64,000 nt of DNA. Source: Chloroflexota bacterium (GTDB taxonomy: Bacteria > Chloroflexota > UBA11872 > VXNJ01). The stretch covers positions 126,085-190,084 of the forward strand of contig OZ242360.1 of the NCBI GenBank assembly GCA_965208775.1. Direction: 5' to 3'. The translations under genes and the position numbers were made by a program. Of the stretch, positions 13,394-48,217 are shown in pieces. The notes under the pieces were generated by a model. It was given only the letters and a program-made list of their open reading frames with translations. It was not told the DNA's origin and did no database searches. Position 1 is the stretch's first letter. The number at the start of each line of letters is the position of its first letter.

Positions 13394-15685
13394 TCAACTT
13401 GACTCATAACTGTAGACCCTATCCTCAAGCAGTCCGAGGTCGAGTCCAAAGTAGTAGTCGAGTATTGCCCTGAAGTGGTTGACCGAAGTAATCGAGGGAT
13501 ACACGGCACTCTCGCCGCCCTCGGGAAGCAGGAACGCGGCCAGGATGTCGTGGCTGATCGAGGGATCGTGTTTTTCGTGTCCGTGGTCTCCGGCGATGAC
13601 GATTATCGGAGTTTGTTCCGAGTTGTCGAGTATCGCGTCGACGACTTCCAACATCTGGCCGTTCAGCCAAATGAGCTGACCATAGAATGCTCCGGGAACC
13701 GAGGGATCGTGGTCATCCTGCCAGCTTGCCCCGTCGAACCTGACGTTTCCATGCTTGTCGAACGAATAGGGGCCATGCGGTTTTATCAAATGCGCGACTA
13801 CAAACTTCGGCCCGTCCCAGATTCCGACTTCCTTCATGAATTCCAGCCAATCGAGAGCCCGTTGCGGATGCCCGAAACCGTAGGACCTGTGTTGCGTGCC
13901 AAATTCGGGCGAGAGGAGCAGATTCGCCACGGTTGTCTGCAAGAGCGCCGCGGCAAATCTGCCAGACAGGTGAGTTGTCCGTTCGAGCCGGAACGTTTCC
14001 CTAGTCTCCTCTCCGCTGAATAGGGTGCCCGAGGGGCTGAAGTCCACCACGACGTGCGCGGTGCTGTTGAAATTGGTCAATTCGAAACCAGAGGAGATAT
14101 GCAGATATCTATACCCAATGGTCATCAGGATTTGTCCCAATGCGTGAGCGTCTATCTGCGCTCGGAGACGTCGATAGGCCGCTTGCCTGTTGGTATCGAA
14201 GTACTCGGCGTCAACATATTCCATATTCAGGGTTGAAGTTGCTGAATGGTAAGTCCGAGCGTAGTTACTGCGAGCTTGTGGGGCCACGTAGAAGCCGCGG
14301 TTTTCCAGTTGCTGCACGAATTCGCTGTTGTCGAACTGCGGAGGCGAACCGCTCCTGGGATATTCATCCAGGATGATGTAATAGATGTCTCTAAGTTGAT
14401 CTCTTGAGAGTCTGTCCCTGGCTTCGGCGAGCCGTTCGTCGAGTCCCGGGAAACCGTCGAAAGGGTCAACGTCCTGTGGTCGGCTGCCTGCGTAGAAATC
14501 GGTGGCGATCTGGTAAATGGGCAAGAGAACAAGCAAAACGCTGCCCAGGTTGAGCGTCAGACCCAGCTTGCGCGTGAGGCCGGGATGTCGAGTTAGGAGC
14601 GCCCCGAGACCGAGAACGGTCGGTACGCCTAACCCAAGAAGATACCTGTCATCGGCGTGATCGCCCAGGGCGACGTATATGTGACCGTATGAGAAGAACG
14701 CGATTCCGAGCAGACCCGTAAGCGCCGCCGCCACGGTGGCTGTTTTGAAGATGAGCCGCAATGCCACGAAGGTGACCGTGACGGCCGCCATGGTGACCGC
14801 GAAGACGGCGATCGACTCGGAGACGCGAAACAAGAACAGGTTGCTGGAGAGATAGTGCAATATCGCGAAGGCGGGTATCAGCCACGGAAACACGTAGATG
14901 GCGCGCCGCGCGGTTGAAGTGCGAACAGACGATGCCTGATCCACACGGCGGCCCGGCGGTAGTCGCAGGACCGCCCGAACCCGGCCGGCCAGGGACACAA
15001 ACCCAATTCGCATCCTCCGCGTGGTGTTGCGCAGAGGTCGGGAGACCAGAGGCTGCGACAGTACCGTTATCGCGATTGCCAGCGCTGCGGCCGCCGGCGC
15101 TCCCGCCAGGCGCGCAAGGTCCGGCGTCGATCCCTCGAGAGCGGCCTGCCAACCCCTGCCCTTCCAGACGAACTCATGCGCGAGCGGGCCGTACTCCGTC
15201 GGCTGACGATGTATGGTTACAGACGCGCCAGTTCCCGGCTCGCTGGTCCCGAACATTACGTTGTAGTCCAGCTTCCGTTCCGCTCCGCGCTCCGTTGATA
15301 CCCAGAGTTGCAACGTGAGTTCTTCGCCGGGGGCAGGCCGGTAGGGCGGGAAAACGAGAACATACGCATCCAATTGCTTGCTCGCCCTGATTGAAACTTT
15401 GACCTGCCGCACAGGCTCTTCGGCATCTCCGCCAAGCAACGAGGCGACGACCGGCGCCTCGCCGCGGTCAAAGCGGGCGCGGGCCCAAATACGGACCTCT
15501 GAAACGATGTCGACGTCGTCCAGGACTTGCTCGACTGTTTGGTCGGGCCAGACGGGATCCGTGAGGTCGATAACCCCGCCCGAAGACCGCGAAACGAAGC
15601 TTGTTTGGGGCAGCAGGCTCGCCAGCAGCCCAATACTCACCAGAGCGAGAACAGCCGGTATCAGCCGGGAACGAACCATGTTCAC
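13394..15685 (-). CDS. LtaS-like paralog 1: membrane-anchored alkaline-phosphatase-superfamily (LtaS/sulfatase-like) protein.
   Basis: The 763-aa ORF has an N-terminal signal anchor, a ~170-aa ectodomain, about five TM helices, and a C-terminal domain with ILDEYPRSG and IIVIAGDHGHE motifs typical of LtaS/sulfatase-like phosphotransferases. Confidence 0.7.
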   Translation of the reverse strand: MNMVRSRLIPAVLALVSIGLLASLLPQTSFVSRSSGGVIDLTDPVWPDQTVEQVLDDVDIVSEVRIWARARFDRGEAPVVASLLGGDAEEPVRQVKVSIRASKQLDAYVLVFPPYRPAPGEELTLQLWVSTERGAERKLDYNVMFGTSEPGTGASVTIHRQPTEYGPLAHEFVWKGRGWQAALEGSTPDLARLAGAPAAAALAIAITVLSQPLVSRPLRNTTRRMRIGFVSLAGRVRAVLRLPPGRRVDQASSVRTSTARRAIYVFPWLIPAFAILHYLSSNLFLFRVSESIAVFAVTMAAVTVTFVALRLIFKTATVAAALTGLLGIAFFSYGHIYVALGDHADDRYLLGLGVPTVLGLGALLTRHPGLTRKLGLTLNLGSVLLVLLPIYQIATDFYAGSRPQDVDPFDGFPGLDERLAEARDRLSRDQLRDIYYIILDEYPRSGSPPQFDNSEFVQQLENRGFYVAPQARSNYARTYHSATSTLNMEYVDAEYFDTNRQAAYRRLRAQIDAHALGQILMTIGYRYLHISSGFELTNFNSTAHVVVDFSPSGTLFSGEETRETFRLERTTHLSGRFAAALLQTTVANLLLSPEFGTQHRSYGFGHPQRALDWLEFMKEVGIWDGPKFVVAHLIKPHGPYSFDKHGNVRFDGASWQDDHDPSVPGAFYGQLIWLNGQMLEVVDAILDNSEQTPIIVIAGDHGHEKHDPSISHDILAAFLLPEGGESAVYPSITSVNHFRAILDYYFGLDLGLLEDRVYSYESS
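14240..15685. repeat. Inverted-repeat arm A (~1.45 kb), ~95% identical to the reverse complement of 26702..28147.
   Basis: Codons 1–~483 of paralogs 1 and 2 are near-identical. I aligned DNA stretches by eye and found few mismatches. The end coordinates are approximate. Confidence 0.8.
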
Positions 15686-24475: not shown

Positions 24476-24701
24476 GATGGAAGAGCGTGACGAGCGTCAG
24501 ACCCACGAGGGGCGCTGGGAACAGCTGAACCGAAGCTGGTGGGACACCAAGGTCGTCAACTGCGAGATGTGCGGCCAGATGATCCCTCGCGACGTGTGGA
24601 AAAGCGCCGACGGCCACTCGTTTTGCTCAGTCGAATGCGATGATCTCTACCGCTCCTATTGGCTGCCGCGCTACGGCGGGAAGACGACGACACACGACTA
24701 G
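24476..24701 (+). CDS. Small (~75-aa) putative Zn-ribbon protein, possibly a γ-like subunit of the hydantoinase/carboxylase.
   Basis: It has a C4 pattern CEMCGQ…CSVEC and starts 11 bp after the HyuB stop. The gene order A–B–small matches acetone carboxylase acxABC. The six-frame track shows a longer overlapping form. Confidence 0.45.
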
Positions 24702-24777
24702 CAGCGCAGTCCCTCGGGGCTTGTCGTAACCGGGGCGCACACGATGTTGGAGGGGAGGCCTCGCCACCAGGCACCGG

Positions 24778-26313
24778 CTATTGGCGCGAAGCGGAACTCA
24801 GCCTCGTCATCAGATAGAGCCTGCGACCGGAATTTGCGATTGGGACGGCTCGTTCAGTAGAGAAGTATCGGCCAAACGCCTTTTCGAAGCTCTCCCGGTT
24901 ATAGCCTGGAAAAGAGTGATTCCTCAGGGCCAGCAGACGCTCGACTTTGGGGTCATCACGTGGAACATACTCGATGATCAACGACTTGCCCAGCGATGCG
25001 AAGAACTCGGCGAGCCTGCTGAGGGGCACGTTGTTGGTTATGGCCAGATGATGGACCAGGGCCAGCGCGATTACCGCATCCGTCGGCCCTCGATCCAGGA
25101 GCGACATGCGCTCCGTATTGGCCCATCCACTGGCGGGGCTAGGATTCGAAACGTCGGCAACTATTGGATACACCGTGGCATCTCGACTGCGGGCGACCTC
25201 CCGATAGCTGATTTCGATGGCTCCCGGATCGCTATCGATCGATATCACGCGCACACCCTGTTCAGCCGCGATCCGGGTGAATTCACCGGTGTTGGCTCCG
25301 ATATCCCAAGCCTCCACGGGGCCAACGCTGCGAAGATACTCGGCTACCAGCCCCTTCTTGCTATCGAATCCGGCGTCGTCGTAGCTCTCGCCCTGGTAAT
25401 AGTCTGACCACTCGCTCACCTCGGGATCCCAGCCGAGACTACTCACTGTCGATCTCAGATTGTTCAGGATGGTAAGCAGCCCTTTACGGCTCATCCGTCC
25501 TCGAAAGTCCTTGCGCGTGCTTGCTTTGCCCGCCTGGCGGACCTGCAATTTGGCGTGTGAGAACAGATGCATCGCAAGGCCGGGCCGTAAGCGACTTCGC
25601 AGCGGCAACAGGCGAGCCGCCAGCGCCAGCGGTATTCCGTCAAGATGCACCTCAAGTAAGCGGCCCAGGCTTACGTCCCGAAGCGCCATCAGAGCCAAAG
25701 GCGCCAGGAAATGCTGGCAAAACTGCTTGTACGCCACCCACGGGAAACCCTCTTCGTATTCCTCGAACGATAAAGTGTCCACAAGCGCGGGGCGGCCGCC
25801 GTGGAGCTGAATGTTGTAGGCGCTGGCATCCTTGAGCGACATCCCGAACTCGACAGCCCGAATCTGGATATCCAGCGTGACCAGAGCCGAGTCTCTAAGC
25901 TGGCTGAAGCACCATTCATACGGGTAGGAGATGAACGGTACTTGAGCCGGCTTCAGAATCCTGTAAGCCTGCTCGTCCTCCAGCCCGGCGGGCACCTCCT
26001 CATGAGGCAGCAGCAATCCATCCCGCACAAGGCCGTCATAGAGGCCGGAAGCCATCAGACGGTCATAGACCGGCCCATATGACTTGGCGACGTGACGGAA
26101 GACGCACCCGTCCCGCCGGAAGACGAATCCCGCCGGATCGCGAAACGATCCGGCTATCGCTTCATCGATCCCTATCGTCACCCGGCCCATCCACGGCTCT
26201 GCGATCAGCCTCGGTCGATTCCACATCCTCAAGGCTGGACACGGTGCCTCCGTCACCAGACGAGCGCCGGAAGATCCCGAGAATCCTGCGGAACCACAGC
26301 CCCACCGAAACAA
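24778..26313 (-). CDS. Two-domain protein: an N-terminal ~330-aa domain with a protein-kinase-like catalytic-loop pattern, fused to a C-terminal class I SAM-dependent methyltransferase.
   Basis: The C-terminal region carries SAM motif I (WDIGANTGEFTRIAAEQGVRVISIDSD). The N-terminal region has DASAYNIQLHGGRPALVDTLSFEE, resembling the HxD…N / D(F/L)(G/S) motifs. The start is probably internal (~26229 or 26190). Confidence 0.6.
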   Translation of the reverse strand: MFRWGCGSAGFSGSSGARLVTEAPCPALRMWNRPRLIAEPWMGRVTIGIDEAIAGSFRDPAGFVFRRDGCVFRHVAKSYGPVYDRLMASGLYDGLVRDGLLLPHEEVPAGLEDEQAYRILKPAQVPFISYPYEWCFSQLRDSALVTLDIQIRAVEFGMSLKDASAYNIQLHGGRPALVDTLSFEEYEEGFPWVAYKQFCQHFLAPLALMALRDVSLGRLLEVHLDGIPLALAARLLPLRSRLRPGLAMHLFSHAKLQVRQAGKASTRKDFRGRMSRKGLLTILNNLRSTVSSLGWDPEVSEWSDYYQGESYDDAGFDSKKGLVAEYLRSVGPVEAWDIGANTGEFTRIAAEQGVRVISIDSDPGAIEISYREVARSRDATVYPIVADVSNPSPASGWANTERMSLLDRGPTDAVIALALVHHLAITNNVPLSRLAEFFASLGKSLIIEYVPRDDPKVERLLALRNHSFPGYNRESFEKAFGRYFSTERAVPIANSGRRLYLMTRLSSASRQ

Positions 26314-26701
26314 CTCCGCCCAGCACCGCTGCGATCAGGATCTGTATCAGAAAGCTGCCGCTTCCGGGATCGAGATAAGGCAGAAATAGCAGCCTAACGA
26401 CGCTCAGGCTCGAGATCGAATTTCTACCCCCACCGCGAGCGTAATTCGACACATCACTCGCTGTCCCGGACCTGTTTCTAACCATCCAATACTCCCGCGA
26501 AGAGCGCTTTCTCACACCATTATGCATTTTGACGCGTAACGACGGTAAATGACCGCTTTCAGTCGGCCTTGGTAGGAAGCACAACGACGCAACTTCAATG
26601 GCGAAACACTGGTGGAAGTAAAATCCACCGACTTTATACATGGATTTCAGACAAGCGCCCCACCGGAAGCCAGAGTGGTAGATCGATGACACATCAGCTT
26701 C

Positions 26702-28147
26702 TTGCTTAGATCTCGCTTGCGGCTGATACCGGCTGTTCTCGTTCTGGTAAGTATTGGGCTGCTGGCGAGCCTGCTGCCCCAAACAAGCTTCGTTTCGCGG
26801 TCTTCGGGTGGGGTTGTCGACCTCACGGATCCCATCTGGCCCGACCAAACAGTCGAGCAAGTCCTGGACAATGCCGACATCGTTTCGGAAGTCCGTATTT
26901 GGGCCCGCGCCCGCTTTGATCGCGGCGAGGCGCCGGTCGTCGCCTCGTTGCTGCGCGGACAGGATGAACAGCCTGTGCGTCAGGTCAAAGTGTCAATTCG
27001 GGCGAGCAAGCAATTGGATGCGTATGTTCTCGTTTTCCCGCCCTACCGGCCTGGCCCCGGCGAAGAACTCACGTTGCAGCTCTGGGTCTCAACGGAGCGC
27101 GGAGCGGAACGGAAGCTGGACTACAACGTAATGTTCGGGACCAGCGAGCCGGGAACTGGCGCGTCTGTGACCATACATCGTCAGCCGACGGAGTACGGCC
27201 CGCTCGCGCATGAGTTCGTCTGGAAGGGCACGGGTTGGCAGGCCGCTCTCGAGGGATCGACGCCGGACCTTGTGCGCCTGGTCGGCGCATTAGCGGCAGC
27301 CGCCTTAGCCGTTGCCGTAACAATACTGTCGCATCCTCTGGTGTTCCGACCTCTGCGCAACACCGCGCGGAGGATGCGACTTGGGTTTGTGTCCCTGGCC
27401 GGCCGGGTTCGGGCGGTCCTGCGACTACCGCAGGGCCACCGTGTGGCTCAAGCATCGTCTGTTCGCACTTCAACCGCGCGGCGCGCCATCTACGTGTTTC
27501 CGTGGCTAATACCCGCCTTCGCGATATTGCACTATCTCTCCAGCAACCTGTTCTTGTTTCGCGTCTCCGAGTCGATCGCCGTCTTCGTGGTCACCATGGT
27601 GGCCGTCACGGTCACGTTCACGGTATTGCGGCTCATCTTCAAGACGGCCGCAGTGGCGGCGGCGCTTACGGGTCTGCTCGGAATCGCGTTCTTCTCATAC
27701 GGTCACATATACGTCGCGCTGGGCGATCACGCCGATGACAGGTATCTTCTTGGATTAGGCGTACCGACCGTTCTCGGTCTCGGGGCGCTCCTAACTCGAC
27801 ATCCCGGCCTCACGCGCAAGCTGGGTCTGACGCTCAACCTGGGCAGCGTTTTGCTTGTTCTCCTGCCCATTTACCAGATCGCCACCGATTTCTATGCAGG
27901 CAGCCGACCGCAAGACGTTGACCCTTTCGACGGATTCCCGGGACTCGAGGAACGGCTAGCCGAAGCCAGGGACAGACTCTCAAGAGATCAACTTAGAGAC
28001 ATCTATTACGTCATCCTGGATGAATATCCCAGGAGCGGTTCGCCTCCGGAGTTCGACAACAGCGAATTCGTGCAGCAACTCGAAAACCGCGGCTTCTACG
28101 TGGCCCCACAAGCTCGCAGTAACTACACGCGCACGTACCAGTCGATT
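26702..28147. repeat. Inverted-repeat arm B (~1.45 kb), partner of 14240..15685.
   Basis: See arm A. Identity ends close to the start codons on both arms, and the upstream regions differ. Confidence 0.8.
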
Positions 28148-28972
28148 CCCTCATCCCTGAACGCTAGCTACTTCGGTGAACTGGCTGGAGACGAGGAGCC
28201 CGCTCGACTTCAGGATATTGGAACAGTCGATGACCACCTTCTTGGCCGAATTCTGAAAGCTCTAGGGTACAGATACGTGCACGTTTCGTCGGGATACTTC
28301 TCGACCAAGACAAACCAAAACGCCGACCTTGTCGTTGACTTTGCGCCATCCGGAACCCTTCTCTCTGGGGCCGAAGCCCCGAAGGCGCTTGAAGAGACGA
28401 CACGCTTGTCAAGCAAGTTTGCAAACACTTTCCTGCGAACAACCGCAGCCCAGCCGTTCGTGTCCAAGGATTTCGACGTTGAGCCTGACGGCATTTACGG
28501 CTGGGGCAACCCATTCCGGACCCTGGCCTGGATCGAGTTCATGAAAGAAGCCGCGGCTGTCGATGGGCCAAAGTTCATATTCGCCCACCTTCTAAAACCG
28601 CATTCCCCTTACTCCTTCGATAGATTTGGAGCCATCAGCACGGATTTAGCCGGCTGGAGCGACGATCACGATCCCACGGTAAACAGCGCATTTTACGGTC
28701 AGCTCATATGGCTCAACGGTCAATTGCTCGAAGTTATCGACGCTGTACTCGACGACTACGACGAACCGCCGATTATCGTCGTCGCGGCAGACCATGGGCG
28801 CAAAGGTCCTTTCCGCAACGAGATCCTGGCGGCGTTCCTGCTTCCCGACGGCGGCGAGAGCGCCGTGTATCCCTCAATTACCTCAGTCAACCATTTCAGG
28901 GCAATCCTGGATTACTACTTCGAACTGGACCTCGGTCTGCTGGAGGACAAGGTCTATAGTCACCCGGGTTGA
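26702..28972 (+). CDS. LtaS-like paralog 2 (TTG start), a mosaic of paralogs 1 and 3.
   Basis: Residues 1–~483 are ~95% identical to paralog 1, and the C-terminal catalytic domain is closer to paralog 3. The DHG motif reads VVAADHGRKG rather than IAGDHGHE. Confidence 0.7.
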   Translation: MLRSRLRLIPAVLVLVSIGLLASLLPQTSFVSRSSGGVVDLTDPIWPDQTVEQVLDNADIVSEVRIWARARFDRGEAPVVASLLRGQDEQPVRQVKVSIRASKQLDAYVLVFPPYRPGPGEELTLQLWVSTERGAERKLDYNVMFGTSEPGTGASVTIHRQPTEYGPLAHEFVWKGTGWQAALEGSTPDLVRLVGALAAAALAVAVTILSHPLVFRPLRNTARRMRLGFVSLAGRVRAVLRLPQGHRVAQASSVRTSTARRAIYVFPWLIPAFAILHYLSSNLFLFRVSESIAVFVVTMVAVTVTFTVLRLIFKTAAVAAALTGLLGIAFFSYGHIYVALGDHADDRYLLGLGVPTVLGLGALLTRHPGLTRKLGLTLNLGSVLLVLLPIYQIATDFYAGSRPQDVDPFDGFPGLEERLAEARDRLSRDQLRDIYYVILDEYPRSGSPPEFDNSEFVQQLENRGFYVAPQARSNYTRTYQSIPSSLNASYFGELAGDEEPARLQDIGTVDDHLLGRILKALGYRYVHVSSGYFSTKTNQNADLVVDFAPSGTLLSGAEAPKALEETTRLSSKFANTFLRTTAAQPFVSKDFDVEPDGIYGWGNPFRTLAWIEFMKEAAAVDGPKFIFAHLLKPHSPYSFDRFGAISTDLAGWSDDHDPTVNSAFYGQLIWLNGQLLEVIDAVLDDYDEPPIIVVAADHGRKGPFRNEILAAFLLPDGGESAVYPSITSVNHFRAILDYYFELDLGLLEDKVYSHPG

Positions 28973-29079
28973 GCCACATGTTTAGTGCTTGCAACACGAC
29001 TGTATTAGGCTAGTACGCACTGGACATCGGCCTCGGTTCCTTGAATCGGTTGGCATGAACCGCGCGCTAGCACTCACAC

Positions 29080-31350
29080 TTGTCTAAATTTCGCCGCCCG
29101 CTGATCTCCGCCGTTCTCGTATTGGTCAGTGTCGGGCTGTTCGCAAGCCTGCTGCCTCAAACAAGCTTCGTCTCGCGGTCTTCCGGTGAAGTTGTCGACG
29201 CCATAGGTCCTGTTTGGCCCGACCAATCAGTCGAGCAAGTCCTGGATGGCGTCGACATCGTTTCAGAGGTCCGCATCTGGACCCGCGCCCGCTTTGACCG
29301 CGGCGAGGCGCCGGTCGTCGCCTCGTTGCTGCGCGGGCAGGATGAACAGCCTGTGCGTCAGGTCAGATTTCCAATCAGGCCGAACAAGCTCCTAGAGCCG
29401 AACGTTCTCGTCTTTCCGCCGTACCGACCTGCCCCCGGCGAAGAACTCACGTTGCAACTCTGGGTTTCAACGGAGCGCAGAGCAGAGCGGGAGCTGGACT
29501 ATTACGTGATGTTCGGGACCAGCGAGCGGGAATCCGGCGCGTCTCTTACGCTCAATAGTGAGCCGACTGACTACGGCCCTCTCGCTTACGAAGTGATTTG
29601 GAGAGGAACAGGTTGGCAAGCCGCTCTCGAGGGATCGACGCCGGACCTCGCGCGCCTTGCGGGAGGGCTGGCGGCCGCAGCGCTGGCAATCGCGATAACG
29701 GTACTGTCGCATCCTTTGGTCTCCCGAACTCTGCGCAATACCACGCGGAAGATGCGAATCGCGTTTACGTCCCTGGCCAGCCGGGTGCAGACGGCAATGC
29801 GCCTATCGCAGGACCGCCGAGCGTCTCGACCATCAGCCGCACGGCGTGCCTTCTACGTCTTTCCGTGGCTATTCCCCGCTTTCGCGATATTGCACTATCT
29901 CTCCAGCAACCTGGTCCTGTTCGGGCTGTCCGAGTCCATCGTGGTCTTCGTGATCACCATGGCGGCCGTCACGGTCACCTTCGTGGGATTGCGGATCATC
30001 TTCAAAACAGCCGCCGTGGCGGCGGCGCTTACGGGTCTGCTCGGAATCGCGTTCTTCTCATACGGTCATATTTACGTAGCCTTGGGCGACCACGCCGACG
30101 ACAGGTACCTTCTTGGATTGGGCATACCGACCGTGCTCGGTCTTGGAGCCCTGATAGCACGACGACCGGAAGCAGTCCGCACGACCATCCCGATTCTCAA
30201 TGTGGCAAGCGTTGTCCTACTCGCGGCGTCGGTGTATCAGATCGCCTCCCATTACTATGCGGCGAGTTCCCCACAACCCGATCAAGGTTCAGAAGCATCA
30301 GTCCCGCTTGAAGAAATCGTCACCGACGCGAAGACGCGAGTCCCCTCAAGCGAACTCCGGGACATCTATTACATCGTCCTGGACGAATATCCCAGAAGCG
30401 GTTCCCCGGAGCAATTTGACAACGCGGAGTTCATACAAGAACTCGAAAGCCGCGGCTTCTATGTCGCCTCCCAGGCACGCAGCAACTATCCAGAGTCGTT
30501 TATGTCCATACCCTCTTCCTTGAATATGGACTACGTAGGCGAGGACACCATACGGGGACCAGGGGAGACTGGCCGCCTCGTCGAAATGGCCGACGACCAC
30601 GCGCTGGGCCGCATTCTGAAAGCGCTGGGCTACCGGTATCTCCACGTTTCGTCAGGATGGTTTTTCACCAAGACAAGCCGCAACGCCGATGAGATCGTGG
30701 CATTCGCGCCTTCGGGCCGCATCCGTTCCGGGCCCGAAACCGCCCAGCCGCTTTCGTTCGACGAGGCCGCCCGCTTGTCAAACAGATTTACGACTACCTT
30801 CTTGCGAACGACCGCCATCAGGCCATTCCTGTCGCATGAATTCAGCGTTGAGCATGACGATCCCTATGACTCGACCCACCCGTTTCACACGCTCGCATGG
30901 CTCGAATTCATGAAAGAGATCGCGAGCATCGATGGACCGAAGTTTGTGTTTGCGCATTTAATGAGGCCGCACGATCCGTATTCGTTCGACAAGTCAGGGA
31001 ACATCACATTCGACCAGATCGGCTGGCGTGATGATCACGATCCCACGGTTGGCGGCGCGTTCTACGGTCAAGTCATCTGGCTCAACGGCCAGATGCTGGA
31101 GGTCATCGACGCCGTACTGGACGATTACGACGAACCGCCGATAATCGTGATCGCGGGAGACCACGGGCACGAACGGCATAATCCCACCATCGCTAATGAC
31201 ATACTCGCGGCGTTCCTGCTTCCCGACGGCGGCGAGAGCGCCGTGTATCCGTCAATTACCTCGGTCAACCACTTCAGGGCAATACTGGACTACTATTTCG
31301 GACTCGATCTAGGACTGCTTGAGGACAGGGTCTACAGCCCCGGTAGTTGA
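29080..31350 (+). CDS. LtaS-like paralog 3 (TTG start).
   Basis: The 756-aa ORF has the same architecture. It shares near-identical tracts with paralog 2 (e.g. GEAPVVASLLRGQDEQPVRQV) and the conserved C-terminal 50 residues. Confidence 0.7.
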   Translation: MSKFRRPLISAVLVLVSVGLFASLLPQTSFVSRSSGEVVDAIGPVWPDQSVEQVLDGVDIVSEVRIWTRARFDRGEAPVVASLLRGQDEQPVRQVRFPIRPNKLLEPNVLVFPPYRPAPGEELTLQLWVSTERRAERELDYYVMFGTSERESGASLTLNSEPTDYGPLAYEVIWRGTGWQAALEGSTPDLARLAGGLAAAALAIAITVLSHPLVSRTLRNTTRKMRIAFTSLASRVQTAMRLSQDRRASRPSAARRAFYVFPWLFPAFAILHYLSSNLVLFGLSESIVVFVITMAAVTVTFVGLRIIFKTAAVAAALTGLLGIAFFSYGHIYVALGDHADDRYLLGLGIPTVLGLGALIARRPEAVRTTIPILNVASVVLLAASVYQIASHYYAASSPQPDQGSEASVPLEEIVTDAKTRVPSSELRDIYYIVLDEYPRSGSPEQFDNAEFIQELESRGFYVASQARSNYPESFMSIPSSLNMDYVGEDTIRGPGETGRLVEMADDHALGRILKALGYRYLHVSSGWFFTKTSRNADEIVAFAPSGRIRSGPETAQPLSFDEAARLSNRFTTTFLRTTAIRPFLSHEFSVEHDDPYDSTHPFHTLAWLEFMKEIASIDGPKFVFAHLMRPHDPYSFDKSGNITFDQIGWRDDHDPTVGGAFYGQVIWLNGQMLEVIDAVLDDYDEPPIIVIAGDHGHERHNPTIANDILAAFLLPDGGESAVYPSITSVNHFRAILDYYFGLDLGLLEDRVYSPGS

Positions 31351-31523
31351 GGTCTCATGTGTTGCCCCGAGGCGCGTTCCACGGTGTGCAGTCCCGATTC
31401 GACACGCAGTCCAGTGATCTGACGATCGCACAACCAAACTGGACTAAGAAGCGTTCGGATGTCTACGCGATGCGGGCGCCGCCGGACTCGACTGCCCATT
31501 CAGCCTTCATACGTATCAGCCGC

Positions 31524-33272
31524 CTAACCGCCCACGTCCTCATGGACCTGATAAGAGACCTCGCCGGAGTCTGAGACTGTGATTCTGAGCACGGGAATGA
31601 TGGCGGCATCGCGCCATTGGTTCGGCTTGTCTTCGTGCCGCAGACGTACCGCCAGTACGTAGCTATCCGCGTCCAGCACCCCTTCGGACCGTTCAAGTGG
31701 TTTGAAAACGCCGTGCTCTCTTTGGACGGCCAAGCTGGGAGCGTGGAAGTCAAACTCGTGAATGAGAGAGGTCGTACCCTTGCCGGGATTCAGATAGCTA
31801 ACAAACCACATTGCGATGGCAGTAGGGCCGTTTGGCAGGACCTGCTTTGATGGGTTCCAAGGCAGAGGATCGGTGGCGATCAATACCCAGTCCTGGCTTG
31901 ACCACCGATCGGGAGCGCCGTCGTCGAAGGTTGCGGTGAAAGCGATGCGTCCTTCCGTATCGCTTACGTCGGAGATGCGGACGCTGAACCGCAGCGGTTC
32001 CGCCGACGGAGGCGGGGGCATGATTGGATCGACAGCTCCGTTGAGCGCGTAGACGGCGGCTTGCTCGTTCCACCAGATAGGCTCACGCGCCGCCGGAGGA
32101 AGCGCCCAAGGCAGGAAGGCCGCCGGTGTGATCATCAGGTCGGGTGTCTCTTCGCCGACCGGCCCAATCTGCCAAGTCGAACGCAAGTGCACTGTATTCG
32201 GGTCAATACTGCCCAGCAGCCGGGTATGGGAGAGGGTCCATGCAGTCTGGTAGAGGAGAATGGATTCGAAACCCTTCGGGATCAACACCGTTGCCGACGC
32301 CGCAACAGTCTGTCGTAGGTTTTCGAACGAACCGGCTGTTGGGGGCACGTCGAGGGTGAGAAGCGCAGGTAAGACTCGGTACAAGCGCTCGGACTCGTCG
32401 CGGACCAGGAGCTCGAACAGGCGAGGATCGTCCAGCCGCGCCGCGGCGTCTTCGGGCAGGCCCTCAACCCAATCATCAGGCGCGTGAAGGTATTCGAAAC
32501 CTATCCGCCGGATAGCCGCTACCTCCAGGAAATTGAGGACGTCCTTATACATAGGTCCTTCTCGCGGGTGCACGTGAACGAGTCCGGCAAGTCCCGATGC
32601 GTTCGGACGGCCCGTGGCGTAGGTAATTTCATGCGGGTAGGGCGAGAACACACGTGCATCGACCGCGGTGTTGTTGCGAATGAAATCTTCGATGCGGTCG
32701 GGCAATCCCCGGAGCTTGTGACGCCTAGCCAACCACTTGCCGTCGACCTGCGAAGCCGGTCCGGCGTTGGCCACCTCGATCCCTCTCCCTATCGCCCGTC
32801 TGAGGTTGGTGACCGGCGCCGAGATCGTAGGCCAAACTACCAAGCCCACGAGCAGAGCACCGGCGGCATAGCGGCAGCGGGACCCCAGCTTGGCCATTTG
32901 GCTGCTTAGGGCAATTAATAGCGCGAGCAGCGCCAGGTTGCGGGCATGACCAGCCAGGCGTCCCAAGTCGTGCGGAGCGGGGTCGTAACGCAGCACCAAC
33001 GCGGCGACAATCAGCATCAACGCACCCACGGTCAGCGCCAGCACGAACACCCAGCCAGCGATTGCGCCCGCCATTCCTGGCAGTACGAACATGACCAGGT
33101 TGACGACGACGCCCCAGATAGCCGGTCCGACGATCAGACCTTGCGCCAGCGCGACCCGGCGATCGGTCTCTCGCAGCGCCACCAAGACAATGACGTAACC
33201 AACGCCGACGAGCGCGACGAGCTCAGCCAGCAGGAAGAGCAGGCCGGGGACGACCGACGGATCGACTGTCAT
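31524..33272 (-). CDS. Short (582-aa) paralog of the 930-aa GT-C-like membrane protein, lacking the central ~350-aa polytopic region.
   Basis: The N-terminal ~80 aa and C-terminal ~450 aa align closely with the 33285..36077 product, while residues ~80–440 of that product have no counterpart here. Confidence 0.55.
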   Translation of the reverse strand: MTVDPSVVPGLLFLLAELVALVGVGYVIVLVALRETDRRVALAQGLIVGPAIWGVVVNLVMFVLPGMAGAIAGWVFVLALTVGALMLIVAALVLRYDPAPHDLGRLAGHARNLALLALLIALSSQMAKLGSRCRYAAGALLVGLVVWPTISAPVTNLRRAIGRGIEVANAGPASQVDGKWLARRHKLRGLPDRIEDFIRNNTAVDARVFSPYPHEITYATGRPNASGLAGLVHVHPREGPMYKDVLNFLEVAAIRRIGFEYLHAPDDWVEGLPEDAAARLDDPRLFELLVRDESERLYRVLPALLTLDVPPTAGSFENLRQTVAASATVLIPKGFESILLYQTAWTLSHTRLLGSIDPNTVHLRSTWQIGPVGEETPDLMITPAAFLPWALPPAAREPIWWNEQAAVYALNGAVDPIMPPPPSAEPLRFSVRISDVSDTEGRIAFTATFDDGAPDRWSSQDWVLIATDPLPWNPSKQVLPNGPTAIAMWFVSYLNPGKGTTSLIHEFDFHAPSLAVQREHGVFKPLERSEGVLDADSYVLAVRLRHEDKPNQWRDAAIIPVLRITVSDSGEVSYQVHEDVGG

Positions 33273-33284
33273 CGATCCGATCTC

Positions 33285-36077: not shown

Positions 36078-36330
36078 CGCTACTGCCCTGTCATCGCACG
36101 CAATGCCGTGACCGGGTAGCGATTACAGGCGGAGCCGGGATCAATGTCACCAGAGGTAGTACCGCAACAATGTATGCGAGCGGCGCCCGCCGACGCCACT
36201 CGGAGTCGAAGACGGGTCATACAGCGCGAAGTTTACTTTGCCTTAGTCCACCTCGGCCGCAGGCCACGAGTCCGGCTTGAAGTCCAATCCCGTCTGGCGA
36301 CTTGACAGTTTTCCCGGCAAAGCCAGACCG

Positions 36331-37468: not shown

Positions 37469-38203
37469 CTAAAAGGTGATTTCAGGCAAACGATACATCA
37501 GCGCAAACGCCAGCATGGGCGCAGCGAGCGCGGGTATGGCAGCTGCCAAACGGGGTTGGCGCTTCGAGGACTCCGCAAACACGGCGAGGGCCAGGAAAAC
37601 CAGAAGGCCGGCAACTACGCCCGCGCCCAAAGGATCACTCCGCATGAACCTCCACAGGAAGCCCACCGGGCCGACCTCGGACCAAACGCGGATTGCCAGG
37701 TCCTGCTCCGGGGGCCGGTTGCCGTCGTGATCCTTGAAGCGGCCGTCGGGATATTGATCTTGAAGACCTGCGCCTATGTGGACCTCACCAGTTTCCCCTT
37801 CCGGCAAGAAGAATTGAAATTCCAGGATGTCGTCCGATTCGACATTCAGAGGATCGAATTCGACGCGCGTCCACGCGTCTTCAACATCGGGAGGAACCTG
37901 CACCAATGCCTCTCGAACGAGCGCATCCAATCTCTTCGACCACACTCGTACCGCAATCCGGACAGGGGTCTCAGACCCGGACGTTAGCGGCAGCTCAATT
38001 GTTGTGAGCGTGACGGAGCCCGTGTTGACTGTCTGGCTTACAGGGAGTCCGATAGGCCCCATACGAAACTGCGAAACGTTTGTGGTTTCCAGGTGAGGAA
38101 CGCTTCGCGACCCCAGCACAAGCATCCCGACCGCCGCGACAATCGCCGCGATTGCTATCGCCACCGGCAGATGACGCTCAAACCGCGCGCTCCGCAGGCT
38201 CAA
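37469..38203 (-). CDS. TM–ectodomain–TM membrane protein resembling the N-terminal module of the LtaS-like paralogs.
   Basis: An N-terminal TM is followed by a ~150-aa domain with motifs (VRIAVRVWSKRLD…, AIRVWSE) that parallel VRIWARARFD…/LQLWVSTE in the LtaS-like N-terminal domains, then a C-terminal TM. Confidence 0.45.
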   Translation of the reverse strand: MSLRSARFERHLPVAIAIAAIVAAVGMLVLGSRSVPHLETTNVSQFRMGPIGLPVSQTVNTGSVTLTTIELPLTSGSETPVRIAVRVWSKRLDALVREALVQVPPDVEDAWTRVEFDPLNVESDDILEFQFFLPEGETGEVHIGAGLQDQYPDGRFKDHDGNRPPEQDLAIRVWSEVGPVGFLWRFMRSDPLGAGVVAGLLVFLALAVFAESSKRQPRLAAAIPALAAPMLAFALMYRLPEITF

Positions 38204-40299
38204 GTTCTAAACCCTCGAACGACTCGTCCGACAGGAGTGACGGAGAGGATTAGCACGATCAGGACCAATCCCGATATCGCATATCCGATAACGACGTATT
38301 TCTGCAATTCATAACTGACCGTGATGGTGCCGGGCCCTGAAGCGGGTAAGTTCCAGGAGTTGAAGAGAGGGTCGGGCGAACGCTCGAGCGACTTTCCGTC
38401 GAGGGTGGCCTTCCAGTGAGGGGATGCATATTCGCGCAAGATCAGACGGTCCGGCTCTTCGCTGCCCTGCAATTGAATTTCGTATCTGGTCGGAGAAGAC
38501 CTTCGCCATTCCGGTTCAGCTCCGCCGATGTCTACCAGAGGCGCGGGTACGCCGATGAGGTCGAAACTCCGGATAAGTAGTCCGCCCGAGCGCTCTCGAA
38601 GCCCGGGAAGTGACGCAATGGTCTCGGCCAGACGTTCGCCCTCCCGGTCGTCGGCAGCCAGTGCAACGGCGCCCACGCCCTCCGCACGCAATATATCTGC
38701 GAATCGGGAAGGATCGGCCAGAGCGTTATCGGCAAGCGAGCGAACCGGAGTCAGGGCGTACACCAACACGCGGGCGCGCATCGATCCCGCCACAGCTCCC
38801 CGAACAATTCGAGCCGAACCCCACGACGTTGTCCGGTTGGGCTGGTTGAATACCAGGACCGCCGCATTGGGGTCTGACATTGGCCTGAACTCATCGGTAA
38901 ATTCGTAATACTCGCGGGGGAATTCGGCTGGAATGTAACTCGCGAAATCGGTTTGAAAGAGCGACCGTTCGATTGCCGGTCGCATCCATACGACCATGGC
39001 GCCCGCCACCGTCGCGACCGCTAGCCCACCCATCCAGCGTTTCAGCGGCCAGTTTCGCTTTGCCGGTAGCTCCATCGCGGTCGGAACCATCCACGCGATG
39101 CCCACGGCGTAGCCCATGGGCACCAGCGCTCCAATCTTGTCCGGTTCCCGTATCAACCAGCCAACCGGAACCGATCGCACGATCCACTCGTATATCTGAC
39201 CGCCCCCGGGAAGGCTGCTCAAACTCATCAACACGACGAAGGCTCCCGTTATCCCGAGGACGAAAACCCACGTCGATCGGCGGCGGCGGTCGAAGATTGT
39301 CGCCAGCACCAGCGAGCCGACGCCGAGCAAGCTGGATACAGACCACCCGACCGCGGCAAAGCCGGATGGCCGAAAGTTGACACCAAAGAAATGGTGTGCC
39401 GTCAGCGTGAGGGCACTCCACAGGGTTTGGGTTTGGGTGGAGACGATCACCGGAGCCGACTCGTAGGCATAGGGCGGCCCGACCTGCCCGCCCGCAAAGA
39501 AGGTCGAGGCGGCGGGAACCCACACAAACGCCCCTGTGACGATGACCGCCAAGACGTAGACAACTCCGATCTTGAAGATCGTCTTCCGGCTGTTCGACCG
39601 CTGCACGAATCGAACGACCCACAGAAGACCCACTGCCAAGACGGTAATCGCGAGATAGTGTGGGCTTCCCGCTGATATCAACATCGTGGCAAGGCCAGCC
39701 CCAACGGCCGGCGGCCACCGGCGGCTGCGAATCGAATATGCCATCAACCCGATAACCAGCGGCAACCCGAGTGCCGAGAGCGCCACGCCGAGCTGCTCCA
39801 GGCGGCCCAGGTACCACGGATTCGCGACCCAGAACACCGAGCCGAGAGTAAGCCCCAATGATTCGCTCACGGTCAGGCCGCGAGCTCTTCGCGAGGGGCC
39901 AAGCAGCAGCCGAAAGCCAGCCCATGCCGTCACGAATCCAATGAGCGCCCATCCGACCACGACCGACTTCATGATCGCGGAGCTGGATAGTCCACCCAAT
40001 TGTCCGGCCGCAACAAAAGGCCCCCACGTGCCGAAGAGCCCTATGGATACCAGAACGCTATGGCGGTTCGGGTCCCAGGCCGGGTAGAAGATCCGCGGCA
40101 AGAGGTCCGCGTGCAACGCATAGGTGAGATCGCCCTGGAGAATCTCACCAGGTGTGACTATGACCCGCCACCACAGTGCGATTACCACGGCAAGTCCAGC
40201 CAGGAAGATTGCGGGGACATGTAAACGATCGCCCCTGAGAATTGAGTTGGCCCGCGCCAGACCGCCGGCGCTCCATTCAAGACGGGGTTGCCGCGTCAT
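38200..40299 (-). CDS. YfhO-like/GT-C-like large membrane protein (699 aa), paralog of 45470..48217.
   Basis: It has an N-terminal polytopic region, a C-terminal extracytoplasmic domain and a final TM. Shared motifs with the paralog include NPWYLGRLE, SPHYLAIT and YASPHWKATLDGKSLE. Confidence 0.55.
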   Translation of the reverse strand: MTRQPRLEWSAGGLARANSILRGDRLHVPAIFLAGLAVVIALWWRVIVTPGEILQGDLTYALHADLLPRIFYPAWDPNRHSVLVSIGLFGTWGPFVAAGQLGGLSSSAIMKSVVVGWALIGFVTAWAGFRLLLGPSRRARGLTVSESLGLTLGSVFWVANPWYLGRLEQLGVALSALGLPLVIGLMAYSIRSRRWPPAVGAGLATMLISAGSPHYLAITVLAVGLLWVVRFVQRSNSRKTIFKIGVVYVLAVIVTGAFVWVPAASTFFAGGQVGPPYAYESAPVIVSTQTQTLWSALTLTAHHFFGVNFRPSGFAAVGWSVSSLLGVGSLVLATIFDRRRRSTWVFVLGITGAFVVLMSLSSLPGGGQIYEWIVRSVPVGWLIREPDKIGALVPMGYAVGIAWMVPTAMELPAKRNWPLKRWMGGLAVATVAGAMVVWMRPAIERSLFQTDFASYIPAEFPREYYEFTDEFRPMSDPNAAVLVFNQPNRTTSWGSARIVRGAVAGSMRARVLVYALTPVRSLADNALADPSRFADILRAEGVGAVALAADDREGERLAETIASLPGLRERSGGLLIRSFDLIGVPAPLVDIGGAEPEWRRSSPTRYEIQLQGSEEPDRLILREYASPHWKATLDGKSLERSPDPLFNSWNLPASGPGTITVSYELQKYVVIGYAISGLVLIVLILSVTPVGRVVRGFRT

Positions 40300-44647: not shown

Positions 44648-45439
44648 TCACAACGGCCACGGCTCGAGCGCATTGAACACGCCGAAAAGCACCCAGGCAG
44701 CCGAACCGGCGATGAGCAGCGCCACGATTACGGCCTCCGGCAGAGCTCCTCCAACCATCCGCGCCGCACGTAGGGAAACCCAACCGGCGCCGACTATCAG
44801 AGCCGCCGCCGTTGCCGCTAGAAACAACAGACTGACGGCCGGTGTGCCAAGCATCGACATCAAGACCGAGCGCGGTGTCGACCGCCGCCACAGTTGCAAG
44901 ACGAGATCGTTGTCTCCGCTTCCCGGGTCGCCGTTTATCGACGCCTGGCCGGCCCCGTACCCGTCGACGCGATTACCCTGCAAGTAGATTGGCCCCGGCG
45001 AGTCCGCGGGATTCACCACCTGAATGACTATTCCGGAACCAACCACAGACACGTGTGACGGTATTCCTATGGCCGCCTCGCCGCTAGGCTGGACGTCAAC
45101 AAGCTGCTCAAATAGGACAACCTGTTCGGAACCACTCTTGTGGAGAATGCGAACAATGGCCCCGACGGCGGATGCCGGTCTGTCGATCCAAACGGCCGCC
45201 TTCGTTAGCGGCTCTGGCATGTCGCCCAGCGACTGCTCGGCAGCGGCGCCCGGGGGCAGCGGGCCGTATTCGAGATTGAAGTCGATTGCCGGAATCGACG
45301 GCCACTCCCGCTCGGAAGTGGTAAGTGCATACATGCCCGAAAGCAGCGCGACGAACCCGACCAGCGCGGGGAGCAATCGCCGCCAGAGCGGCGTCCTGCC
45401 GCCGGATTGGATTGTTAGAGTGGCTCGCAAGCCTGACAT
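44648..45439 (-). CDS. TM–ectodomain–TM membrane protein, second standalone homolog of the LtaS-like N-terminal module.
   Basis: I placed the start at the internal Met 63 to avoid a 155-bp divergent overlap. The architecture matches the 37469..38203 product. Confidence 0.4.
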   Translation of the reverse strand: MSGLRATLTIQSGGRTPLWRRLLPALVGFVALLSGMYALTTSEREWPSIPAIDFNLEYGPLPPGAAAEQSLGDMPEPLTKAAVWIDRPASAVGAIVRILHKSGSEQVVLFEQLVDVQPSGEAAIGIPSHVSVVGSGIVIQVVNPADSPGPIYLQGNRVDGYGAGQASINGDPGSGDNDLVLQLWRRSTPRSVLMSMLGTPAVSLLFLAATAAALIVGAGWVSLRAARMVGGALPEAVIVALLIAGSAAWVLFGVFNALEPWPL

Positions 45440-45469: not shown

Positions 45470-48217
45470 ATGATAGGCAAGCGAAGCACGCTGGTCTGGA
45501 TCGCGGCTTTCATATTCGGGCTTGCGACAGTAGCCGCGGTCTATAGCTTGGTGCTCACCCAGCCCGGCGACTTGCAGCAGCGCGACCTTTACCCCTCGCT
45601 GTTCCTCGAAAGGGTAGTCGAGCATTCCGTATACCCGCTGTGGTCGCCGCGCGGCACATTCAACATCGCCGGTACCGGACGACTGCCTATAACCCTCATT
45701 CTGGCGGGGTTCGCCAAATTGTTCGCTCTCGATGGCGCCACCTACGCACGATTGATAGTCCTCTGGATCGTGTTAGCCGCCTACACGAGCGGCTTCTTCG
45801 GGTTCTACCTCCTGTCACGGTGGCGTCGTGGAGAAGGTGGGAACGTTCCGATCGGAGCGCTGGTCTGTGGAGTGGTCGCAGCCGTAAACCCGTGGACTAT
45901 CGCCAGGCTCGAGCACAGCTGGGTGATGGCCCAATGGGCCGTCCTACCGATCGTCGTTGGAGCGTTTGCCGAGGGTCTCCGCACGGGGCGCAAAAGGTGG
46001 ATTCTGGGTTCCGCCCTGATTATGGCGGCATTCGGCACGACCCAACCACACTACCTGGTAATTACAACCGGGGTTGTGTTCTTGACAGCCGCCGTCGTCG
46101 CGGTCTGGGGCTCAGGAAAACCGGTCAGGCATTTCGCCGACCTCGGGCTGTGGTTATTGACTCTCGTGCCGCTCTCTGCGCACTTAATCGCCCCTTACGC
46201 GGCGGCGAGGCTCCTTGCCGGAACCGGCGACCCCGCCTACACGCTGACCGACCAGACCCTCACCACGATCTCAAGATTCCAGGACTTGCCCGGAACACTG
46301 CTTGGGACCGGCAATTTCAATTGGCAGGACGTACTGGCCCCCTCTGGCCCGGAGAGAGTCATATGGTCGATGGCGGCATGGGTCATCGCTTTGACACCGC
46401 TCGGCGCAATCTTGCTGGCGGGATGGAGGCGGCCGGCCATAGCTCTGGCGGCGGGCGGGTATCTGGTGGCTGTTTTCCTGTCGATGTCGCATTGGGAATG
46501 GACCGCCGAGCTGTTCCAGCGAGCGGTCAACGACGTGCCCGGATTCTGGGTCTTCCGGGAGCCTGACCGCACCACAGGCTTGGTCGTATGGTCTCAGGCG
46601 CTCGCCTTGGGGATGGTGGCAACCAGCCTCACGGCCTGGCGAGGTCCGCGGCGACAAGCCGTGAGCCGGTGGGCGATTGTGGCCTATCTCGCAGCCGCCG
46701 CAGTGTTTCACGCAGCCCCCGCAACGGTAAACGCCCTTTGGAAATCCGACGTGTCGAACTATGTTCCAAAGCCGCTCCCGGAAGACTACCGGCGCGTGCT
46801 GCGAGCGGTTGACCGTAGCACGGATCCAAACGGCCGCATTCTCGTCGCTTCGTCGGACGAACGGGCGCCTAACTGGGACAAGACTCGAATAGTCAGGCTC
46901 ATGGAAGCCGCCAGCATTGAATCGCCCAGCATCACCGGCGATACGCGGTCTCCGGTCCCGCCCTCGCCCGTCTCCGGGCGGTGGTTTGAGTTCTTTTACT
47001 CGCTCCCGGGAGACGAGGCCGTTGACGCGGCCCGTAACGCCGGCTTCGACCGTATCGTGGTCGTTCGCGACTACGACGCGGGAGAAAGCACGTTCTCCGC
47101 AATCTCTCAGGCTCCCGGCGTGCGAGACATCGCCGCTGGACCGAACATCTGGGCGGGCGAGCTTTTCGAGGACGGGCCTCCTACCATCGAGACCGGTGTT
47201 CCCATCCTCGTCACTGACTTGGCATCGACCACGGACACGAATGAAGTGGCCGTACTCGCCAATCATTCGGCGGCGTTGGATCATCCCGGAGTTTCCATCG
47301 CGTCCGCCTCGACCGCCGAAGCCGCTATCGAACAGTCATTTGCCGAGCTTGGGCCGTCCGGCGTCAGACCGGTCACGGACTGGTTTGGATTCCGCAGCCG
47401 GCGCGGGGGCTGGATACGAGGCGGCGCGTACGCAGACGAGCGCCAGACCTGGCAAGCCGAACTCCGCCGACTGGGACTCGAGTCATGGAGCGCCGACTAT
47501 GACCTCGGCATCGCCTTCGCCCCGCCCGGAGAAGCGCGAGATCGAATGACCATTGACACCCATGACGCGCGCGGACGGACGACAGCCCAAACAGAGGAGT
47601 CAGGCCCGCGCAGGGTCTATACCTACAATGCGCCAACGGTATGGCTGCGAGTTTTCACGAGCCCGGAATCGGACTGGCTCGACATAGAGTGGCAAGGCGG
47701 CGGAAAGCGGATCGATACCAACTCGCTCGAAGCAACCTGGCGGTGGGTCGAGATTGGAGCGATCGGGAGAGAAACAATTGCGATTGTTCCCGGCCCCGGA
47801 CTGGCCGCTGTCAACGCCATCGCAATCGCGCCGGCCGGCTGGAGTCCCGAAGACCGATCGCCGTCCGTCCAATTCGTTCATGCGGAAGTCGAATATCAGC
47901 GCCTGTCTGCGACGAGATATGCCGCAAGCCTGACTTCCGACCGCGGACTGGTCTTCATACTGCTCCGCGAGGCCTACGATCCACTTTGGCGAGCCAAGGT
48001 GGACGGAGGAAGCATTGAGCCTGTGCTCGCCGACGGACTCTGGAACGGATACGTGATTCCCGTGGCGGAGGGAGGCGTCACAAATGTCACGTTCGAGTAT
48101 GCGGCCCAGCGGTGGTACGACGTCGGGATAGGAATATCGCTGGCAAGCGCTCTGACGTTGGGCGCTCTTTGGGCGATTTTCGTAGTCCGCGGTCACACCA
48201 AAAGGCGCACGTTATGA
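45470..48217 (+). CDS. YfhO-like/GT-C-like large membrane protein (915 aa).
   Basis: NPWTIARLEHSW, TTQPHYLVITT, FREPDRTTGLV and YDPLWRAKVDGGSIEP motifs, plus a C-terminal TM, match the 38200..40299 product. Confidence 0.55.
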   Translation: MIGKRSTLVWIAAFIFGLATVAAVYSLVLTQPGDLQQRDLYPSLFLERVVEHSVYPLWSPRGTFNIAGTGRLPITLILAGFAKLFALDGATYARLIVLWIVLAAYTSGFFGFYLLSRWRRGEGGNVPIGALVCGVVAAVNPWTIARLEHSWVMAQWAVLPIVVGAFAEGLRTGRKRWILGSALIMAAFGTTQPHYLVITTGVVFLTAAVVAVWGSGKPVRHFADLGLWLLTLVPLSAHLIAPYAAARLLAGTGDPAYTLTDQTLTTISRFQDLPGTLLGTGNFNWQDVLAPSGPERVIWSMAAWVIALTPLGAILLAGWRRPAIALAAGGYLVAVFLSMSHWEWTAELFQRAVNDVPGFWVFREPDRTTGLVVWSQALALGMVATSLTAWRGPRRQAVSRWAIVAYLAAAAVFHAAPATVNALWKSDVSNYVPKPLPEDYRRVLRAVDRSTDPNGRILVASSDERAPNWDKTRIVRLMEAASIESPSITGDTRSPVPPSPVSGRWFEFFYSLPGDEAVDAARNAGFDRIVVVRDYDAGESTFSAISQAPGVRDIAAGPNIWAGELFEDGPPTIETGVPILVTDLASTTDTNEVAVLANHSAALDHPGVSIASASTAEAAIEQSFAELGPSGVRPVTDWFGFRSRRGGWIRGGAYADERQTWQAELRRLGLESWSADYDLGIAFAPPGEARDRMTIDTHDARGRTTAQTEESGPRRVYTYNAPTVWLRVFTSPESDWLDIEWQGGGKRIDTNSLEATWRWVEIGAIGRETIAIVPGPGLAAVNAIAIAPAGWSPEDRSPSVQFVHAEVEYQRLSATRYAASLTSDRGLVFILLREAYDPLWRAKVDGGSIEPVLADGLWNGYVIPVAEGGVTNVTFEYAAQRWYDVGIGISLASALTLGALWAIFVVRGHTKRRTL

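Follow-up and report, generated by a model that had tools for sequence, protein, structure and literature searches.

Bacterial envelopes are decorated by membrane phospho-transferases of the EptA and LtaS type, which have effects on antibiotic resistance and on interaction with the host. The EptA/MCR-type phosphoethanolamine transferases comprise five N-terminal transmembrane (TM) helices followed by an extracytoplasmic domain of the Pfam Sulfatase family (PF00884), and LtaS has five TM helices and an external sulfatase-fold domain. A stretch of 64,000 nucleotides from a Chloroflexota bacterium (NCBI GenBank assembly GCA_965208775.1, contig OZ242360.1, positions 126,085 to 190,084 of the forward strand; hereafter the window, the numbering of which is used throughout) encodes three paralogous proteins with a core of this layout, termed A [13394..15685, minus strand, 763 amino acids (aa)], B (26702..28972, plus strand, 756 aa) and C (29080..31350, plus strand, 756 aa), together with two small membrane proteins, S1 (37469..38203, minus strand, 244 aa) and S2 (44648..45439, minus strand, 263 aa). 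All five open reading frames (ORFs) were present at the positions given in a preliminary description made by reading the sequence alone. Unlike EptA, A, B and C carry an N-terminal TM–jelly-roll–TM cassette, and they have two helices more than LtaS. On the evidence of alignments and profile comparison the ectodomain within this cassette is homologous to those of S1 and S2, and taken jointly the homology, fold and topology of this module are assigned with high confidence. The module-bearing architecture is new for the EptA/LtaS-like enzyme class.

The TM helices of A, B, C, S1 and S2 were called from Kyte–Doolittle hydropathy. Protein A begins with a signal anchor (TM1, aa 8-26, 15608..15664; hydropathy peak 2.33), which is followed by the extracytoplasmic jelly-roll module of ~163 aa (aa 27-189, 15119..15607) and by a second helix that brings the chain back to the cytoplasm (TM2, aa 190-214, 15044..15118). 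An Arg-rich linker (aa 215-262, 14900..15043) then leads into a membrane core with approximately five further helices and the invariant motif FFSYGHIY (aa 263-400, 14486..14899; hydropathy and invariant columns of alignment A3), after which a linker and the extracytoplasmic catalytic domain of the alkaline-phosphatase (AP) superfamily (Sulfatase-like) complete the protein (aa 401-763, 13397..14485; Pfam PF00884 and motifs; all on the minus strand). The same layout was found in B (N-terminal cassette 26702-27343, module 26780-27268) and in C (cassette 29080-29721, module 29158-29646). The loop of A at aa 215-262 contains 13 Lys/Arg residues and one Asp/Glu residue; because of this excess it was placed in the cytoplasm by the positive-inside rule, and the module and the C-terminal domain are therefore predicted to be extracytoplasmic. 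The preliminary description was thus supported in that an extra TM-flanked, beta-rich ectodomain precedes a canonical enzyme of five TM helices and an external catalytic domain. The ectodomain was also conserved among the paralogs as had been claimed (full-length identity by BLASTP 79% for A–B, 67% for A–C and 69% for B–C). TM1 of A is kept in the homologs P0002, P0011, P0013 and P0014, and a 742-aa Chloroflexota protein (P0050) belongs to the 90%-identity cluster of paralog C.

All three paralogs have a mosaic structure. Up to aa ~480, A and B share 89-100% identity (dS ~0.13), and in aa 481-720 their identity is 32-62% (dS ~1.4) and B lies nearer to C, a pattern that points to a recent event of gene conversion or recombination in the 5' 1.4 kb.

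Both small proteins had been described as TM–ectodomain–TM. The flanking helices were found as described, and one TM helix more was present than had been stated, giving the order TM–module–TM–TM with the module at ~37634-38113 in S1 and at ~44840-45316 in S2. A database protein of 263 aa (P0034) is identical in sequence to S2 and supports its start at 45439.

The relationship between the fused modules of A, B and C and the free modules of S1 and S2 was established by profile comparison. Searches with the paralog N-termini against S1 and S2 by BLASTP gave nothing significant (E > 0.2), word-index homolog searches returned close relatives only and the first, shallow profiles of the paralogs against S1 and S2 were borderline (probability 1-7%). 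S1 and S2 were related to each other by hhalign with a probability of 94% (E 8.5e-8, 201 columns). The profile of the paralog ectodomains aligned collinearly with a merged profile of the S1 and S2 ectodomains over 97 columns, with a score of 39.6 (E 8.7e-6), compared with a mean of 13.7 and a maximum of 24.4 after column shuffling (n=150), a maximum of 29.2 after block shuffling (n=150) and a score of 23.2 for the reversed profile. The A/B/C, S1 and S2 groups were likewise collinear in a MAFFT alignment, in which G-P, F-x-P, L-x-L-Q and a Trp were near-invariant. When 1.84 billion cluster representatives were then searched exhaustively by HMMER using the three-group alignment, 66 proteins were found at E <= 1e-3, which were split by architecture into fused and free-standing forms and used to rebuild two separate profiles. 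The enriched fused profile matched the enriched free profile with a probability of 98.5% (E 1.5e-15, 126 columns). Members of the fused group are independently full-length homologs of A (31-48% identity), and the ectodomain of one fused-type protein, P0081, matches S2 directly (BLASTP 2e-7) and bridges both groups. Ratios of nonsynonymous to synonymous substitution (dN/dS) of 0.13-0.30 were obtained for fused and free modules alike, and both are therefore regarded as under purifying selection; for the catalytic part of A and its ortholog at locus L001 a frameshift in the L001 copy deprives the ratio of meaning.

The proposal that the small proteins share the ectodomain of the paralogs was thus upheld, and several of the strand pairs on which it had been based were mismatched. 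In the MAFFT alignment the paralog segment VRIWARARFD corresponds to AAVWIDRPAS of S2, as proposed, and to TIELPLTSGS of S1 rather than to VRIAVRVWSKRLD. The paralog segment LQLWVSTE aligns with LEFQFFLPE of S1 and IVIQVVNP of S2 and not with the strands claimed for it, and AIRVWSE of S1 and LVLQLWRRS of S2 align with AHEFVWKG of the paralogs, so that part of the original pairing had crossed non-homologous strands.

The A ectodomain was modelled with AlphaFold2 from the three-family alignment as an all-beta sandwich [predicted local distance difference test (pLDDT) 76.9, predicted template-modelling score (pTM) 0.77]. A model of S1, calculated from an alignment without paralog sequences (pLDDT 74.8), reproduced the eight strands and their order, with the beta-sandwich followed by a juxtamembrane helix and then by the TM helices. 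A Foldseek search of the PDB returned no match at E <= 1e-3, the best TM-score being 0.57. The higher-ranked fold matches were the phage phi812 baseplate DUF4815 protein, the Bxb1 tail spike, the cyanophage A4 capsid protein and the carbohydrate-binding module (CBM) BT0996-C; PHR domains, CBMs of families 6, 35, 36, 15 and 29, Cry toxin domain III, BcsB and seipin ranked lower. As modelled, the module is a generic jelly-roll with no close solved relative. No shared Pfam family (at E <= 1-5) and no CBM was found among 26 close and 26 distant module-bearing sequences, and no NCBIfam model matched A, B, C, S1 or S2 in the module or elsewhere. The suggestion of an undescribed domain family consequently holds for the sequence, where the family is new and uncatalogued, and does not extend to the fold, which structure comparison identified as an ordinary, common jelly-roll. 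The CBM6/35/36-type domains, which have a galactose-binding-like jelly-roll, share this beta-jelly-roll fold with the module at 5-13% identity. The module is larger than these CBMs at ~160 aa and is anchored by TM helices on both sides, whereas the CBMs matched here come from soluble or secreted enzymes.

The fold also bears on two other roles. The preliminary description had considered chain-length sensing, in which a Wzz/polysaccharide co-polymerase (PCP)-like TM–ectodomain–TM protein would set polymer length. The only feature in favour of this role is the topology, which the module shares with such proteins. Wzz/PCP chain-length regulators have helical ectodomains whereas the module consists of beta-strands throughout, and Pfam gave neither a Wzz nor any other match at E <= 5. 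Chain-length sensing found no support and is regarded as highly improbable. The second role is lipid handling, in analogy to seipin, the lumenal beta-sandwich of which lies between two TM helices and binds lipid; a TM–beta-sandwich–TM module might similarly capture a donor, either a lipid or a polyprenyl-linked compound, at the outer leaflet and offer it to the enzyme. The fold of the module matches seipin, a protein of eukaryotic lipid droplets, less well than it matches the CBMs, and the seipin match was weaker than those of ~50 other jelly-rolls, so that a seipin-like function is considered improbable.

The module adjoined predicted TM helices wherever the architecture could be assessed among the 66 representatives, and four arrangements were distinguished: N-terminal to the enzyme (717-801 aa), free-standing (213-271 aa), followed by four further TM helices (434-449 aa) and C-terminal to a ~6-TM domain (436-464 aa). 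Pfam searches at relaxed thresholds with the module proteins of odd architecture gave nothing usable. Giant repeat proteins with CARDB, WD40 and PKD domains were also returned as carriers of the module and were judged to be spurious, as they showed many short repeated matches to beta-strands.

A genome scan with B gave 79 loci, ten of which match aa ~1-755 and carry the module; all ten are in metagenome-assembled genomes (MAGs) of Chloroflexota. The ~70 other loci match only aa ~250-755 (27-33% identity) and come from three phyla, with Anaerolineales, Actinomycetota and Desulfobacterales among the sources. These module-less relatives are ~520-aa proteins of five TM helices and a catalytic domain which begin just past the Arg-rich linker of A; they had no NCBIfam match, and no module gene was found near their genes. 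Since ~70 relatives are without the module and all ten full-length matches are from Chloroflexota, it is concluded that the canonical enzyme gained a cassette (TM1, module, TM2 and basic linker) in one Chloroflexota clade.

An annotation artefact, in which the cassette, encoded by its own gene upstream, would have been fused to the enzyme through a sequencing error or a misassigned start codon, would account for the many database homologs that are fragments of 130-395 aa. These fragments are frameshifted, cut by insertion sequence (IS) elements or truncated at contig ends. The fused ORF is continuous in all three paralogs and in independent assemblies, and homology to A spans the full length at nine of the ten genome loci and in eleven divergent representatives of 717-801 aa. 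This evidence refutes the artefact, the probability of which is regarded as negligible.

In related genomes the fused gene is often broken. One copy is interrupted by an rve-family IS element (L083, 10001-11878), one is divided into four small ORFs near transposase genes (L082, 10001-12273) and one is frameshifted (L001, 9974-12283). Many of the database homologs of the N-terminal module are frameshifted fragments as well.

The C-terminal 330 aa of the paralogs matched a single Pfam family, Sulfatase (PF00884, aa ~460-705), and this match was weak. B was above the cut-off of 25 bits (29.3 bits, E 7e-7), whereas A (16.6 bits, E 5e-3) and C (23.8 bits, E 3e-5) were below it; six of nine members of the enzyme family matched, with a best E of 7.3e-11. 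Motifs invariant in the enzyme family are FFSYGHIY (in the membrane), D-IYYIILD-Y, SNYxx(T/S), AHIxxPHxPY and (G/A)DHG, and the invariant or near-invariant columns of alignment A5 are D17, T55 (Ser in paralog C), H209, P213-H214 and D277-H278. The order and spacing of the motifs are those of the metal ligands and nucleophile of the AP superfamily, with a Ser/Thr ~40 aa after an Asp; the nucleophile was assigned by its position alone. Searched against the PDB, the catalytic-domain profile gave weak best matches to Neisseria meningitidis EptA (4kav, E 0.014; 5fgn, E 0.031), which span the catalytic half only and in which the motifs H-x-x-(P/S)-H-x-P and D-H-G are aligned; sulfatases ranked after EptA and no LtaS chain was present. 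A comparison of the family profile with Escherichia coli EptA by hhalign was not significant (E 0.42), a phmmer search of the PDB with the catalytic domain gave 0 matches and a profile of nine catalytic domains returned noise only. No LtaS chain was found in PDB searches with single sequences or profiles, the NCBIfam LtaS model NF053595 did not match A, B or C at E <= 0.1, and no EptA-type membrane domain was detected in them by Pfam or NCBIfam.

The label LtaS, which the preliminary description had applied to these proteins, therefore fits their topology, whereas in profile searches no LtaS model was matched and the best PDB matches, weak as they are, were to EptA. Judged by sequence, A, B and C are assigned to an uncharacterised membrane-enzyme family that combines five TM helices with an extracytoplasmic AP-superfamily domain; the likeness to EptA and LtaS concerns this layout, and the proteins are not placed in either family. 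The motifs FFSYGHIY, IYYIILD-Y and SNYxxT are the family's own and distinguish it from EptA, and A, B and C differ from LtaS in matching neither the family model nor the solved structure, in addition to the N-terminal cassette. For this member of the Chloroflexota a monoderm-type envelope is expected, in which teichoic-acid-like polymers are plausible.

S1 is one gene of a minus-strand string with the order M4-M3-S1-GT2-M2-M1. Immediately upstream of it and overlapping its start lies M3 (38200..40299, minus strand), which encodes a 699-aa polytopic protein; the TTG start of S1 overlaps the TGA stop of M3 (TTGA), and S1 is thus predicted to be translationally coupled to M3. The divergent neighbour of S2 is M6 (45470..48217, plus strand, 915 aa), a paralog of M3 with 25% identity. 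Adjacency of M3 and S1 recurs at L002, L080, L081 and L085 and that of M6 and S2 at L080 and L087, so M3 is a likely partner of S1 and M6 of S2. A metagenome scan for S-like loci yielded three loci only. At L002 a tandem pair of B-like and C-like genes directly adjoins GT2-S1-M3-M4.

These gene arrangements bear on the possibility that the module is a docking or scaffold element, the jelly-roll binding protein rather than glycan. S1 and S2 would then be structural subunits of M3 and M6, and the fused copy would bring the phosphotransferase to these polytopic proteins as well or cause it to oligomerize. The viral and PHR fold matches and the operon coupling make such a function plausible. It is opposed by the positions of A and its L001 ortholog, which lie far from the S1/M3 gene cassette, between BNR and GNAT genes, and by loci L003-L010, which have no genes of that cassette within 10 kb; a scaffold is accordingly viewed as rather unlikely.

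The explanation preferred here, to which about an even chance is given as a whole, is that the module is an accessory binding domain: a membrane-tethered domain of CBM-like shape at the outer face of the membrane, which would hold an extracytoplasmic substrate (an envelope glycan or glycolipid) or a partner enzyme beside the active site embedded in the membrane. In A, B and C the module would act in cis, and with M3 and M6 it would act in trans as a subunit, much in the way that BcsB serves cellulose synthase. BcsB is itself a large multi-domain protein with a single C-terminal anchor and has no sequence relation to the module. By analogy with EptA and LtaS, the catalytic domain probably moves a phospho-substituent from a membrane lipid donor to the glycan. 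A ligand-binding role of the module, taken by itself, is put forward as putative and somewhat less probable than even.

Several points weigh against this interpretation. The alignment used to model the A ectodomain included S1 and S2 sequences, so that of the two models that of S1 alone was built without the other family, and the enriched profiles had drawn on matches of the merged-profile search, which introduced some bias. As Foldseek found no PDB relative at E <= 1e-3, the likeness to CBMs is confined to the level of the fold, and jelly-rolls also serve as protein–protein or lipid-binding modules, as the matches to PHR, TNF-like, viral cement and seipin domains illustrate. An invariant loop motif of S1 and S2, D-x-Y-P-x-G, is not conserved in the fused modules; being limited to S1 and S2, it implies that any ligand may differ between free and fused modules. 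The AP-superfamily assignment is also weak, with A and C below the Pfam threshold and PDB E-values of 0.01-0.03.

A broader form of the accessory-domain explanation would make the TM–jelly-roll–TM cassette the dedicated hand-over subunit of an unrecognized machine for Chloroflexota envelope glycopolymers. S1 and S2 would be obligatory partners of the M3/M6 polytopic synthases, and the fused form would plug a lipid-dependent phospho-transferase, supplied by a methyltransferase-like partner, into the same machine. This extension is speculative and unlikely; if true, it would imply a teichoic-acid-like decorated polymer in a phylum with largely unknown envelope chemistry.

The analysis defines a broad, uncharacterised EptA/LtaS-like branch that extends over three phyla and in which a methyltransferase-like gene usually accompanies the enzyme gene. 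One of its sub-branches, in the Chloroflexota, has acquired a portable, membrane-tethered jelly-roll that is also found by itself, as a subunit alongside other large membrane proteins. A new domain family with defined boundaries and the candidate partners M3 and M6 provide a handle on envelope-glycan assembly in uncultured Chloroflexota. Accessory beta-sandwich domains are common on glycan-handling enzymes, and the finding is for this reason an incremental one and no surprise.

The methyltransferase-like gene of the window (24778..26313, minus strand) encodes 511 aa with weak matches to class I methyltransferases at aa ~337-460 and a ~300-aa N-terminal part without a database match. Copies of it (46-84% identical) adjoin the enzyme gene, usually directly upstream, at at least 20 loci in MAGs of Chloroflexota, Actinomycetota and Desulfobacterota/Deltaproteobacteria, and this conserved adjacency suggests a functional unit of two genes. 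A kinase-like reading of the N-terminal half, made from motifs by eye, was dropped as it had no Pfam or PDB support.

The string around S1 had been called a GT-C operon. This was backed by sub-threshold matches of one protein, M2 (33285-36077, minus strand, 930 aa), to DUF2298 (E 0.0016, 18 bits versus a threshold of 27.8) and TIGR03662 (E 0.0026); no match to a GT-C family was found in M3, M4, M5 or M6 with Pfam and NCBIfam, and NCBIfam as a whole returned nothing for M3, M4 or M5. Pfam searches with M1–M6 at relaxed thresholds gave nothing usable, and PDB profile searches with M2/M4 and with M3/M6 were empty. M2 and M4 are paralogs, as M3 and M6 are. The N-terminal loop that follows TM1 in M3 and M6 contains invariant Q-x-D-L ... 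Y-P-x-W positions; we take this loop to resemble the first-loop motifs of GT-C arabinofuranosyltransferase-like proteins, for which database support was not obtained.

The ATG codons of S2 (45439, minus strand) and M6 (45470, plus strand) are divergent and 30 bp apart, a gap too short for two ordinary promoters, so that one of the starts or the promoter layout is doubtful. Related genomes differ in the block at ~24700-36100 of the window, in which the methyltransferase-like gene lies together with B, C, M1 and M2: L080 is without the segment from the methyltransferase-like gene to M2, and its GT2 gene abuts hydantoinase B; at L002 the block is present without M1 and M2. M1 (31524-33272, minus strand, 582 aa), of which M2 is the upstream neighbour, resembles M2 with the polytopic core (aa ~81-433) deleted, the identity of the two being 89% in aa 1-80 and 59% across the C-terminal ~490 aa.

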